Under the pieces are notes generated by a model. It did not search any database and was not told the DNA's origin. It worked only from the letters and a program-made list of their open reading frames with translations. A program made the translations under genes and the position numbers. 64,000 nt of DNA from Escherichia coli (GTDB lineage Bacteria > Pseudomonadota > Gammaproteobacteria > Enterobacterales > Enterobacteriaceae), in assembly GCF_016026235.1 (NCBI RefSeq), contig NZ_CP065613.1; one strand, given 5' to 3'. Positions within the stretch are counted from its first letter, which is position 1. Each line of letters opens with the position of its first letter. This document shows positions 6,222 through 31,817 of the stretch, in pieces.

Positions 6222-6812
6222 GTGCAAGAAAGAATTAAAGCTTGCTTCACTGAAAGCATTCAAACTCAAATTGCGGCGGCAGAGGCGCTTCCGGATGCCA
6301 TCTCCCGTGCGGCCATGACGCTGGTTCAGTCTCTGCTCAATGGCAACAAAATCCTCTGTTGTGGTAATGGAACTTCCGCTGCCAATGCACAGCATTTTGC
6401 TGCCAGCATGATCAACCGTTTCGAAACGGAGCGGCCCAGCTTACCTGCCATTGCACTAAATACTGATAATGTTGTCTTAACGGCGATTGCCAACGATCGC
6501 TTACATGATGAAGTGTATGCAAAACAGGTGCGGGCGCTGGGTCATGCGGGAGATGTATTGTTAGCCATTTCTACCCGTGGCAACAGCCGCGATATTGTAA
6601 AAGCGGTAGAAGCTGCCGTTACGCGTGATATGACCATTGTGGCATTGACCGGCTATGACGGCGGTGAACTTGCAGGTTTGTTAGGGCCACAGGATGTGGA
6701 GATCCGCATTCCTTCGCATCGTAGTACTCGCATTCAGGAAATGCATATGCTGACGGTAAATTGCCTGTGCGATCTGATCGATAACACGCTTTTCCCTCAC
6801 CAGGATGATTAA
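6222..6812 (+). CDS. diaA: DnaA initiator-associating protein, SIS domain
   Basis: 196 aa with GTG start at 6222; SIS phosphosugar-binding fold motifs ([16 protein letters not shown]). Confidence 0.9.
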
Positions 6813-6821
6813 GGAGAATAC

Positions 6822-7397
6822 ATGAAGGCATTATCGCCAATCGCAGTCCTTATTTCCGCGCTGCTGTTGCAAGGTTGTGTTGCCGCTGCCGTAGTGGGTA
6901 CCGCTGCTGTGGGTACCAAAGCCGCAACTGACCCACGCAGTGTCGGCACCCAGGTGGACGATGGTACCCTGGAAGTGCGCGTGAACAGCGCATTGTCGAA
7001 AGACGAACAGATTAAGAAAGAAGCGCGCATTAATGTAACGGCCTATCAGGGCAAAGTGCTGCTGGTTGGGCAGTCACCAAACGCTGAACTTTCGGCTCGC
7101 GCCAAACAGATTGCTATGGGCGTAGACGGTGCCAACGAAGTGTATAACGAGATTCGTCAGGGCCAGCCGATTGGTCTGGGCGAAGCGTCTAATGATACGT
7201 GGATCACCACCAAAGTGCGTTCGCAGCTCTTAACCAGCGACCTGGTGAAATCGTCCAACGTGAAAGTGACCACCGAAAACGGTGAAGTGTTCCTGATGGG
7301 GCTGGTGACTGAACGTGAAGCGAAAGCGGCGGCAGATATTGCCAGCCGGGTGAGCGGCGTGAAGCGGGTAACTACGGCGTTTACGTTTATTAAATAG
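6822..7397 (+). CDS. dolP: Outer-membrane lipoprotein with two BON domains
   Basis: 191 aa; lipoprotein signal MKALSPIAVLISALLLQGC followed by tandem BON-like repeats. Confidence 0.9.
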   Translation: MKALSPIAVLISALLLQGCVAAAVVGTAAVGTKAATDPRSVGTQVDDGTLEVRVNSALSKDEQIKKEARINVTAYQGKVLLVGQSPNAELSARAKQIAMGVDGANEVYNEIRQGQPIGLGEASNDTWITTKVRSQLLTSDLVKSSNVKVTTENGEVFLMGLVTEREAKAAADIASRVSGVKRVTTAFTFIK

Positions 7398-7411
7398 CAG
7401 CCCCTTGTAAT

Positions 7412-7497
7412 GCCTGATGCGACGCTTGCCGCGTCTTATCAGGCCTACAACGATGCAAACCGTAGGTCGGATAAGGCGTTTACGCCGCATCCGACAT
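7412..7497. repeat. REP/BIME element, two inverted REP units
   Basis: gcctgatgcgacgcttgccgcgtcttatcaggcctac and the inverted copy gtaggtcggataaggcgtttacgccgcatccgacatg lie between the convergent dolP and yraQ. Confidence 0.6.
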
Positions 7498-7510
7498 GTT
7501 TTCCCTCAAA

Positions 7511-8551
7511 TCAGAACAACAGCGCCAGCCCGCCGACAATCACACCAGACACTGCCACCATCGCCCCTGTCAGCCATAAGGCTTTCGCCGGGAACGCTTT
7601 GCGCAGCATAATCAGTGACGGCAAACTCACTGCCGGGAGCGTCATCAACAATGCCAGCGCCGGAGCGGTTCCCATACCTGCCAGCATCATCGTTTGTACA
7701 ATCGGAATTTCTGCTGCCGTGGGAATGACAAACAAGCATCCTGCTACCGCCATCGCCACCACCCACATCAGGCTGTTATCGACAGCACCATCGGCATGGG
7801 GGAATAACCAGACGCGAGCGGCACCCAACACCAGTACTGCAAGGATGTAAACCGGGATCGTACTCCAGAAAAGCGTCCATAGCGCCCTGCCCCAGCGGCT
7901 AAAAAATCCGCCCTGTGCTTCCGGTATGTCAATTTCGACCGGTGCTTGCGTTTGCGGTGTTTCACGCACCCATTTTTGCACCAGCGTCGCAATCAGCAAC
8001 ACCATCACCAGCCCCGCCACCAGACGAATCGCCACAAACCCCCAGCCGAGGACGAACCCCATAAACACCAGCGTCGCCGGGTTTAACAACGGATTGCCCA
8101 TCCAGAATGCCAGCGCACCGCCCATCGACACCTGTTGGCGACGCATTCCCGCCGCGACCGGAGCCGCACAGCAGGTACACATCATGCCCGGCAGCGAAAA
8201 CAGCGTTCCCAGCAGCGTGCCGCGAAAGCGCGATTGCCCAAGCGTACGCAACAACCAGTCACGCGGGATCAGCACCTGAATCAACGAACCGAGGATCACC
8301 CCCAGCACCGCCGCTTTCCATACTGCGAGGAAATAGATCATCGCGTAATCCAACGCCGCTTGCCACGGATTAGCATCCGCCTGCGCAAGGATAGATTTAC
8401 CGATACTGTGGGTTTCGGCAGCAGTAAACGCTTTGCCGTAGTAAGGTTGCCATTTCACATACCAGAGACCGGCAATGACAACGAGAAAGAAAAGCGCGGG
8501 TTTCCACCACTGAATGGGCGTTGCCGCCTGAGATGAAGACTGACCAGTCAT
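7511..8551 (-). CDS. yraQ: Predicted inner-membrane permease
   Basis: 346 aa polytopic hydrophobic protein in the position of K-12 yraQ. Confidence 0.85.
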   Translation of the reverse strand: MTGQSSSQAATPIQWWKPALFFLVVIAGLWYVKWQPYYGKAFTAAETHSIGKSILAQADANPWQAALDYAMIYFLAVWKAAVLGVILGSLIQVLIPRDWLLRTLGQSRFRGTLLGTLFSLPGMMCTCCAAPVAAGMRRQQVSMGGALAFWMGNPLLNPATLVFMGFVLGWGFVAIRLVAGLVMVLLIATLVQKWVRETPQTQAPVEIDIPEAQGGFFSRWGRALWTLFWSTIPVYILAVLVLGAARVWLFPHADGAVDNSLMWVVAMAVAGCLFVIPTAAEIPIVQTMMLAGMGTAPALALLMTLPAVSLPSLIMLRKAFPAKALWLTGAMVAVSGVIVGGLALLF

Positions 8552-29160: not shown

Positions 29161-30519
<1,359 letters not shown>

Positions 30520-30537
30520 TATCATAGCTTTCGTGCT

Positions 30538-30563
30538 AAAGGCCGCAAATGCGGCCTTTTTTT
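30538..30563 (+). terminator. argG rho-independent terminator
   Basis: Hairpin ggccgca/tgcggcc followed by a run of 7 T. Confidence 0.6.
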
Positions 30564-30702
30564 ACGGCTAAGAGAATGTGACTGCGTTTAGGGGCCACCA
30601 TGTCCGAATTCGGAATTAAAGTAAAAGTTAAATGAAATAAAGTAAATTTCAGCGCATTCTATTTTTGCTTTATGTTTTTATGCTCAGTAAAAGGAATGAC
30701 CG

Positions 30703-31656
30703 ATGAATGGTAAATATTTTGTACGCCTCGCATTACATACTCTGAAATGCACTCAAAAAGATTTAGCAAGCCACTTAGGTGTTTCCTCAACACAAATTAG
30801 CAAGTGGAAAAAAGGGGAACACATGTCCGCTGATATGGAAAAAAAGTTCAGAAATATTACACAAATAGGAGATTATTCTCCTCAACTAGTTGAATGGACA
30901 GGCTCAGTCGCGAATGCTGAGAAATGGGATCGACTTATCCATTTTCTTGCTCGACGAGCTATGGACGATGCTGAAACGGGTTATATAACACAACTTCTTA
31001 CTGACGAAGATGGTTTTTTGGTTGAAGAAACAATTGATGTATTAAAGCGAATAGGTTTTCCTACACCTCTTTCCTTTCCTGAAGGACTTAATATTGACGA
31101 CGATAATGCTGATGAAGAAGAGGCTTTTTGGGAGATATTAGAGAGCAATGCTCATTGTTCTGTAATTAATGATATTTATCATGCTCTGAATGATGTTTAT
31201 GGTTTCTACATAGCATATGTTGATGAGTTGATTCAGGACGACGATTTAGATGTCTATTCAAGCGAAGCCATCAATATTCAGAGTTCATTGATATCACTTG
31301 CTGCATGCAAAATTGAAATTGATACTCCTGTTGCGTCAAACTTTAAAGAATTTCGTTATAGAGTTAAAAAAGACTACGAAAATTGGTTGAATCAACTCAA
31401 GATGATGGCATTCAGGGCGGGAATTCCGTTAAGAGCCGAACTTCTGGAAATGGTTTATAACACCGCTGACCAACTTAGCGTTGCAGCAGAAGCCGAACGT
31501 TTCGATTTCAATAAATCTCGCATTCATCCAGATATATACATGAACGAGATCCTTACTGGCATGAGAATAATTCACCAAGTGCTTCCGGTAATAATGCAAA
31601 AGTTAGAAATTACAGATTTCAAACTAGATGAAACAGATTTATGCCTGGGTAAATAG
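30703..31656 (+). CDS. Uncharacterised 317-aa protein with N-terminal XRE-type HTH and acidic C-terminal domain of unknown function (replaces yhbX of K-12 at this locus)
   Basis: Only long frame in a roughly 1.1-kb AT-rich block; RBS aagga lies 8 nt upstream of the ATG. Residues about 10-45 (LKCTQKDLASHLGVSSTQISKWKKGEH) fit the Cro/C1 HTH pattern. I recognise no motif in the remainder. Confidence 0.6.
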   Translation: MNGKYFVRLALHTLKCTQKDLASHLGVSSTQISKWKKGEHMSADMEKKFRNITQIGDYSPQLVEWTGSVANAEKWDRLIHFLARRAMDDAETGYITQLLTDEDGFLVEETIDVLKRIGFPTPLSFPEGLNIDDDNADEEEAFWEILESNAHCSVINDIYHALNDVYGFYIAYVDELIQDDDLDVYSSEAINIQSSLISLAACKIEIDTPVASNFKEFRYRVKKDYENWLNQLKMMAFRAGIPLRAELLEMVYNTADQLSVAAEAERFDFNKSRIHPDIYMNEILTGMRIIHQVLPVIMQKLEITDFKLDETDLCLGK

Positions 31657-31692
31657 TTATCAAATTAAGAATACTTAACCTGGCTTATAAAA

Positions 31693-31725
31693 CGAAAAAA
31701 GACGCTTTTCAGCGTCTCTTTTCTG
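31693..31725. terminator. Bidirectional rho-independent terminator (tRNA-Leu/secG operon and the islet gene)
   Basis: Hairpin gacgct-tttc-agcgtc flanked by an A-run on one side and a T-rich tract on the other. Confidence 0.55.
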
Positions 31726-31730
31726 GAATT

Positions 31731-31817
31731 TGGTACCGAGGACGGGACTTGAACCCGTAAGCCCTATTGGGCACTACCACCTCAAGGTAGCGTGTCTACC
31801 AATTCCACCACCTCGGC
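31731..31817 (-). tRNA. leuU: tRNA-Leu (anticodon GAG)
   Basis: The reverse complement reads GCCGAGGTGGTGGAATTGGTAGACACGCTACCTTGAGGTGGTAGTGCCCAATAGGGCTTACGGGTTCAAGTCCCGTCCTCGGTACCA, an 87-nt class II tRNA. Confidence 0.9.

Follow-up and report, generated by a model that had tools for sequence, protein, structure and literature searches.

We analysed a window of 64,000 nucleotides (nt) of the Escherichia coli genome (assembly GCF_016026235.1, contig NZ_CP065613.1) and report on a single gene between argG and the tRNA gene leuU, which encodes a 317-residue helix-turn-helix (HTH) protein. The main new result is a palindromic motif that recurs in the promoters of this gene and its relatives. From the comparison of upstream regions, this putative operator suggests an autoregulated Cro/C1-type HTH protein. 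The preliminary description of the window had considered the protein to be either a regulator or a stand-alone immunity or abortive-infection factor, and the first of these options gains support from the family-wide motif. In RefSeq the gene carries only the label "helix-turn-helix domain-containing protein".

Putative operator and DNA-binding domain

For 57 non-redundant members of the family we counted k-mers over 200 nt of upstream sequence, with regions 1.2–1.4 kb upstream as controls. The 7-mer AGTAAAT was found in 48 of the 57 upstream regions and in none of 50 control regions, whereas ordinary AT-rich words reached 17–25. When aligned, the sites form an 11-bp palindrome, ATTTA(G/C)TAAAT, with two to four copies per promoter in nearly every member. 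Palindromes with at most one mismatch occur 79 times in 8.9 kb of upstream sequence compared to 14 times in 735 kb elsewhere. This 465-fold enrichment in the genes' own promoters suggests autoregulation; inside or downstream of the gene we found no enrichment of the palindrome. The usual layout consists of two sites 20–21 bp apart or of two such pairs (e.g. at −97, −76, −50 and −29), and the paired sites bracket the expected −35 and −10 positions.

The four operator-like sites upstream of the gene in the window are listed in Table 1. The Salmonella counterpart of site 2 is ATTTACTAAAA at −68, and its position is conserved. Site 4 corresponds to the −21 site of Salmonella and Citrobacter koseri, and site 3 probably to their −42 site. 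Site 1 is overlapped by an 11-codon open reading frame (ORF), MSEFGIKVKVK-stop (30600–30635), which reads MSDFGVKVKFK-stop in an 88%-identical variant of the locus. This ORF was not found in Salmonella or Citrobacter and is therefore probably not functional.

The N-terminal domain, recognised as a Cro/C1-type HTH in the preliminary description, matches the profiles HTH_19 (E = 5.4e-5, residues 6–42) and HTH_3 (E = 2.7e-3). Across the family, HTH_3 is matched at E ≤ 0.001 by 42 of 60 members. The domain has the five-helix HTH fold of XRE proteins, and by both sequence and fold the protein belongs to the XRE HTH superfamily. The recognition helix V-S-P-T-Q-I-S-K-W-K-K-G-E is nearly invariant across the family, with W35 fully so. 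Across the family the alignment starts at Met1.

C-terminal domain

The remaining 260 residues had been described as acidic and devoid of a recognisable catalytic motif, which agrees with our analysis: the net charge is −27 and neither a HEPN nor a peptidase S24 assignment is supported. Every member of the family is acidic in this domain (mean net charge −25.6, range −14 to −37). The AlphaFold2 model of the whole protein, built from a 60-sequence alignment, has a predicted local distance difference test score (pLDDT) of 92.6 and a predicted template modelling score (pTM) of 0.86. For residues 58–317 alone, with a 48-sequence alignment, the pLDDT is 89.8. Both models are all-helical.

The profile and structure searches that had been proposed for this part of the protein gave no homolog of it. 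Scans of Pfam, NCBIfam, PADLOC-DB 2.0 and PHROGs with the query and 60 family members detected the HTH only. The best PADLOC match (1.8e-4, residues 16–40) is at HTH level and leaves the rest of the protein unmatched, and the sequence and profile searches of the PDB returned HTH matches only. Foldseek gave no fold homolog for the C-terminal domain; its weak top matches include the regulators ComR, Rgg2, PlcR and Stl, which combine an HTH with an all-alpha domain. As far as the models can tell, the helical domain thus appears to be an undescribed fold that has neither a sequence nor a structural precedent.

Conservation peaks in the HTH and across residues 261–300 (A-E-x-E ... I-H-P-D-I-Y-M-N-E-L-L-x-G-M-R-x-I-H-Q-V-L-P). 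Invariant or nearly invariant are K203, K233, E246, E263, H275, P276, D277, Y279, E282, R288 and K300. We also considered readings of the segment IHPDIYMNELLxGMRxIH as a HEPN (Rx4-6H), Fic (HPFx[D/E]GNGR), HD or J-domain (HPD) motif and rejected them, since neither profiles nor folds support them and the residues are wrongly spaced. The confidence of the model drops in the conserved 261–300 segment, which would fit an interface that is completed by a partner or by oligomerisation.

Locus, distribution and age

The ORF that the preliminary description placed at 30703–31656, in the orientation of argG, is present and has an ATG start preceded at a distance of 7 nt by the Shine-Dalgarno sequence AGGA. 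The AT-rich block that was reported around it is equally evident: the G+C content (GC) is 0.34–0.39 over 30600–31650 and ∼0.49–0.57 in both flanks. In the record of strain FDAARGOS_943, which is 99.9% identical, the GC of the gene is 0.374 compared to 0.503 in the flanks. In K-12 and in CFT073 the interval contains yhbX, a phosphoethanolamine transferase gene convergent with argG, as had been stated for K-12.

The alignment with K-12 and CFT073 breaks off at ∼30511 and resumes at ∼31689, just before the hairpin on the leuU side. The low-GC segment is real, with borders that differ slightly from the initially assigned 30566–31725 (Table 1). The two terminators that had been described as bracketing the segment are of different standing. 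The hairpin on the leuU side is shared with K-12 and lies only 32 nt behind the stop codon of the HTH gene. The hairpin on the argG side lies within the variable segment: argG ends with KVK-stop here and with KGQ-stop in K-12 (30508–30519), and the last two sense codons differ because the junction of the two alleles sits within the 3' end of argG. Both the argG stop codon and the new terminator hairpin come from the variable segment as a consequence of this break point. The 88% variant and Salmonella retain the hairpin, which is absent from K-12.

Table 1. Features of the argG–leuU interval and its surroundings (positions in the window)
Feature	Position	Strand	Remarks
argG	29176–30519	+	left neighbour
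Variable segment, 1.18 kb	∼30512–31688		stands in for the ∼2.06-kb yhbX segment of K-12 and CFT073
Hairpin and T-run after argG, AAAGGCCGCAAATGCGGCCTTTTTTT	30538–30565	+	perfect 10-nt inverted repeat
Operator-like site 1, TTAAAGTAAAA	30616–30626		degenerate; AGTAAA core at ATG−84; 21 bp from site 2
Operator-like site 2, ATAAAGTAAAT	30637–30647		best match in the window, 2 mismatches
Operator-like site 3, reverse complement ATAAAGCAAAA	30663–30673		degenerate; inverted repeat with site 2; tentative assignment
Operator-like site 4, GCTCAGTAAAA	30682–30692		directly 5' of the Shine-Dalgarno sequence; AGTAAA core at ATG−18
Consensus operator of the family, for comparison			ATTTAGTAAAT
Coding sequence of the HTH protein, 317 residues, 954 bp, ATG start	30703–31656	+	RefSeq relative WP_001012978.1, "helix-turn-helix domain-containing protein"
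N-terminal Cro/C1 (XRE) HTH domain, residues 1–57	30703–30873	+	recognition helix S-x-T-Q-I-S-K-W-K-K-G-E, W35 invariant
C-terminal all-alpha acidic domain, residues 58–317	30874–31653	+	net charge −27; without known homolog
Most conserved C-terminal segment, residues 275–300, IHPDIYMNEILTGMRIIHQVLPVIMQK	31525–31602	+	H275, P276, D277, Y279, E282, R288 and K300 invariant or near-invariant
Bidirectional hairpin terminator (leuU terminator)	31694–31723		shared with K-12; also likely terminator of the HTH gene
leuU, tRNA-Leu(GAG)	31731–31817	−	conserved right-hand neighbour, context only

In agreement with the preliminary description we found no integrase and no partner ORF at the locus, and the repeat check did not detect a flanking direct repeat either. 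We rejected a tRNA-targeted integrative island, as there are neither an integrase ORF nor att direct repeats and the junctions lie at the 3' end of argG and at the leuU terminator. No Rfam RNA family other than the tRNA was found in the segment.

The locus had been expected to vary between strains, and this is the case: the segment is carried by 236 of 5,426 complete E. coli genomes, always on the chromosome, as a single copy and with an intact ORF. The gene is neither universally present at this site nor of conventional GC. Identity among the carriers is 99.5–99.9% in 228 and ∼97% in the other 8. With yhbX in 5,167 of the genomes, E. coli has essentially two alleles at this position, yhbX or the HTH gene, and the position is not a multi-cargo hotspot. 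The yhbX allele has a low GC as well (0.37–0.47 in the K-12 yhbX region, L002, 1959–4000) and hence both cargoes of the site are compositionally atypical.

At the same position, between argG on the one side and leuU and secG on the other, Salmonella enterica has an ortholog with 71% protein identity, one sequence variant of which is found on at least 1,000 contigs. Citrobacter koseri has an ortholog with 73% identity at this position, where the 88%-identical variant is located too. Synonymous divergence (dS) between the orthologs is saturated and at least as high as that of argG, and non-synonymous divergence (dN) is ∼10 times that of argG. Among the orthologs of E. coli, Salmonella and Citrobacter the dN/dS ratio is 0.07–0.22; as judged by these ratios, the HTH gene is functional and under purifying selection. 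The orthologs at the same site also imply that the segment is an old alternative allele to yhbX and not a fresh integrase-borne island. Horizontal acquisition next to the tRNA gene, as had been suggested, does not agree with these data if it is meant as a recent event. We also encountered one 1,485-bp contig binned with a metagenome-assembled genome of Collinsella sp. (L014, JAIJJM010000762.1), whose gene encodes a product 100% identical to the E. coli protein (tblastn). This contig almost certainly comes from E. coli and was binned wrongly.

Spread and composition of the family

A word-indexed search gave 745 homolog clusters, and an exhaustive search gave 322 relatives among 50%-identity representatives. 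Nearly all members have 312–330 residues and align from end to end. The E. coli protein is 50–57% identical to members in Pseudomonas, Acinetobacter, Serratia and Photorhabdus and likewise to those in Massilia, Gallionella, Halomonas and Oryzomonas. In a scan with one genome per species we located 78 loci in alpha-, beta- and gamma-Proteobacteria, Desulfuromonadota, Acidobacteria and Deferribacteres. The family is rare and widely scattered.

We clustered four genes on each side of 61 full-length copies and found no neighbour common to different genera. The hypothesis of a conserved partner was rejected on this basis, since the clustering gave lineage-specific neighbours only. In 54 of 59 loci the HTH gene has a lower GC than its flanks, with a mean difference of 9.5 points. 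Compared to distant genes of the same locus the HTH gene is 10.7 points lower and its immediate neighbours only ∼3 points lower, so the trough in GC is restricted to the gene itself. Taken as a whole, the family appears to be a self-contained single-gene accessory module that moves between genomes without a partner.

In 13 of the 78 loci only a 3' remnant of the gene is left, in the middle of the contig. The Gilliamella species have 3' remnants only (L077 and L078, 7962–8348; L086, L090 and L091), which points to repeated decay in that host genus. In two of these loci (L078 and L090) neighbouring ORFs resemble insertion sequence transposase genes by eye.

None of 50,697 phage records contains a relative, and a member was found on 5 of 72,556 plasmids. 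Among 2.9 million viral contigs we detected fragments and one distant full-length relative with 26% identity (L099, 6001–6951). The 281-kb contig on which it lies (IMGVR_UViG_3300020473_000011) could belong to a jumbo phage or be cellular DNA that was classified wrongly.

In a sister clade of six clusters (P0135 and P0314–P0318), one of them from Stenotrophomonas sp. 2619 (P0318), the entire protein is fused to a C-terminal ThsB-like TIR domain. The 484-residue P0135 consists of a complete family protein followed by a C-terminal TIR domain, which matches Pfam TIR_2 (3e-22), PADLOC PDC-S66 (1e-64) and ThsB (7e-37). Neither the query nor any of 60 aligned members has a TIR domain. In five of the six TIR clusters the recognition helix is decayed (W35 is replaced by L or M), and the Stenotrophomonas member retains the tryptophan. 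The motifs of the helical domain are all retained across the clade. The decay of the HTH and the retention of the helical motifs together mark the helical domain as the conserved core, able to drive another output in the manner of a sensor or switch. The sole contig of the clade that was fetched (L097, with P0135) has the gene alone amid housekeeping genes, and no operator copies were found upstream of it. One metagenomic protein (P0250) has a GIY-YIG domain in place of the HTH; we discarded it as a one-off.

Comparison with known systems

The E. coli protein is best described as an XRE protein that apparently regulates its own gene and carries a sensor or effector domain not described before, and it does not occur in the defence catalogues that we searched. 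Known XRE autoregulators such as the repressors of phages 434 and P22, ImmR of the integrative and conjugative element (ICE) ICEBs1, Aca and the controller C-proteins of restriction-modification (RM) systems have no counterpart to the 260-residue acidic helical domain. In contrast to them, the HTH gene has no regulated neighbours, no S24 or ImmA-type cleavage module and no phage, ICE or RM context. Cleavable repressors of the LexA and lambda CI type differ in the same way, as the protein has no Peptidase_S24 match and its C-terminal domain is all-alpha.

The closest functional analogy for a sensor-repressor is Stl of the Staphylococcus aureus pathogenicity islands (SaPI) and related phage-inducible chromosomal islands (PICI), with which the protein shares the architecture of an HTH and an all-alpha C-terminal domain. 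The all-alpha domain of Stl binds phage proteins and the repressor then leaves the DNA. Unlike Stl, the HTH gene has no downstream island genes. The RRNPP regulators (PlcR, PrgX, Rgg and ComR) are of similar size (∼290–320 residues) and combine an N-terminal XRE HTH with an all-helical sensor. However, the HTH protein lacks their TPR-like peptide-binding domain and there is no adjacent gene for a signalling peptide at the E. coli locus. With respect to the TIR defence proteins (ThsB-like, PADLOC PDC-S66), the sister clade is fused to a ThsB-like TIR domain, whereas the protein in the window has no recognisable effector.

Possible function

We tentatively favour, at a little under an even chance, an autorepressed sensor-regulator module whose most likely role would lie in conflict with phages or mobile DNA. 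As suggested by the phylogenetic footprint, the N-terminal HTH would bind as a dimer to each 11-bp palindrome in the gene's own promoter. With operator copies flanking the −35/−10 region, the gene would hold itself at a low, self-limited level. The acidic helical domain of 260 residues would bind a trigger, which may be a protein, a nucleic acid or a small molecule, and this would alter the DNA binding or the oligomeric state of the protein. In the least supported step, which is speculative, a trigger from a phage or plasmid would pull the protein off its operator and its synthesis would rise. The overproduced form could conceivably act as an inducible binder, or as an abortive-infection trigger or toxic form. 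In the TIR-fused clade the same sensor might be coupled to depletion of nicotinamide adenine dinucleotide (NAD+). We regard it as unlikely, at roughly one chance in four, that these proteins represent a new system against phages or plasmids encoded by a single gene, in which the helical domain is an undescribed sensor of invaders and the TIR form leads to NAD+ degradation.

A stand-alone immunity factor would be a reasonable guess, but the clues to a role in conflict are indirect; they comprise the TIR clade, the near absence from phages, and some neighbours of the DarTG, AbiE and HipBA types. The neighbours are suggestive in loci whose low-GC patch exceeds a single gene. One intact copy is flanked by an HNH effector-like gene and, on its opposite side, by DarT/DarG (L018), and a second has AbiEii two genes away (L041). 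Remnants adjoin AbiEi/AbiEii (L070), HipA/HipB (L074), a ParD antitoxin (L064) and an addiction-module component (L087).

Several points weigh against a sensor-regulator in conflict with phages. The loci with defence neighbours were chosen as unusual-looking and form a small, non-random subset, and most contexts are housekeeping ones (argG/leuU; MFS/pflA in Serratia; fdhD/CMD). Phage sensors usually diversify, and an identity of 50–57% across classes is unusually high for such a sensor. The TIR fusion might instead point to a family that controls an adjacent effector, and it is not obvious what the output of an autoregulated protein would be if it lacks a further local target. In E. coli the operator copies are degenerate, with 2–4 mismatches each, though their positions are shared with Salmonella and Citrobacter, and a simple scan found no sigma-70 consensus promoter in the region. 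We found no publication on the family when we searched the literature for its accession, its locus, candidate locus tags of Salmonella and names of the architecture.

Some of these points would be easier to reconcile with an ordinary accessory transcription factor, an alternative that we consider somewhat unlikely. In that case the helical domain would bind a small-molecule or peptide ligand, the HTH would control distal host genes that bear the palindrome in addition to its own promoter, and there would be no role in defence. XRE regulators typically control their own genes through palindromic operators, the neighbours are mostly housekeeping genes, and the weak Foldseek matches include the regulators ComR, Rgg2, PlcR and Stl. 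Purifying selection and conservation across phyla also fit the binding of a ligand better than a sensor in an arms race.

A selfish gene of the addiction or fused toxin-antitoxin type is doubtful and in our judgement improbable; in such a gene the HTH would autorepress and the acidic domain would be a latent toxin or an orphan neutraliser whose loss is costly. The HTH is of the same type as in the type II antitoxins HigA, HipB and MqsA, and operator-mediated autorepression, a hallmark of these antitoxins, would be shared. The gene is furthermore a lone, AT-rich and horizontally spread unit, of which copies and remnants lie among toxin-antitoxin modules. However, the matches to the antitoxin models are weak and confined to the HTH, with NCBIfam scores of 13–15 bits against cut-offs of 47.7–71.65, and the protein is three times larger. 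Given these sub-threshold scores and the lack of a toxin gene, it is not a type II antitoxin. There is no toxin partner in the window and none is conserved across the 61 loci, the C-terminal domain has no known toxin fold or motif, and the frequency of truncated remnants is contrary to strong addiction.

A minimal mobile-element enzyme or regulator (a novel transposase, recombinase or Rep-like protein, with the motif as element ends or iterons) is highly improbable: lone-gene insertions at differing loci in differing genera, 11-bp sites at an iteron-like 21-bp spacing and a tRNA gene no more than 500 nt away in 5 of 54 loci, besides the enterobacterial site, would suit it, but the single copy in every E. 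coli carrier, the motif enriched upstream and not downstream and the absence of flanking direct repeats led us to reject a transposon or iteron, and the shared site in three genera at saturated dS, the lack of a recombinase, RNase H or winged-helix Rep fold and the rarity on plasmids speak against it too.

If the sensor-regulator reading holds, the family would be a compact and portable unit with a single promoter, a single palindromic operator and a single gene, conserved from relatives of Geobacter to E. coli and equipped with a sensing domain that has no structural or sequence precedent. The E. coli strains offer a clean natural experiment, as they carry either yhbX or the HTH gene at one site, the latter being absent from K-12. 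The TIR-fused relatives give a second handle, an assayable NADase output, on what the helical domain senses. Even if the protein were only an orphan autoregulator, the result would explain a recurrent "HTH domain-containing protein" label in Enterobacteriaceae and supply its operator.

Neighbouring genes and intergenic distances

Some lineages have noticeable genes next to the HTH gene. In Tahibacter it adjoins a low-GC pair of genes for 363 and 216 residues (L043, 9054–10792, − strand), whose sizes and arrangement resemble DarG/DarT of L018; the pair has no PADLOC or NCBIfam match. In Acinetobacter and Zophobihabitans a Cys-rich ORF to which no function is assigned follows on the 3' side (L011, 6982–7794; L046, 8910–9296; L038, 9261–9827). 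It encodes 270 residues in L011 and begins 18 nt past the stop codon in L011 and L046 and 321 nt past it in L038. The Cys-rich ORF has no match in PADLOC or NCBIfam and could be a partner confined to certain lineages.

The distance from the upstream neighbour to the ATG amounts to exactly 183 nt in E. coli (30520–30702), Serratia, Pseudomonas, Acinetobacter and Polynucleobacter (5818–6000 in L004, L008 and L011; 7812–7994 in L065). The neighbours at this distance are unrelated and lie on either strand, no conserved boundary sequence was found at these loci, and the gap ranges from −19 to 1145 nt elsewhere. The recurrence is probably a coincidence, though statistically odd. In Polynucleobacter it concerns a divergent subfamily with 34% identity (L065–L068 and L084), where a divergently oriented gene for 346 residues (6771–7811, − strand), which has no PADLOC or NCBIfam match, always lies 183 nt upstream. 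This subfamily has the canonical operator as a single copy with two mismatches.

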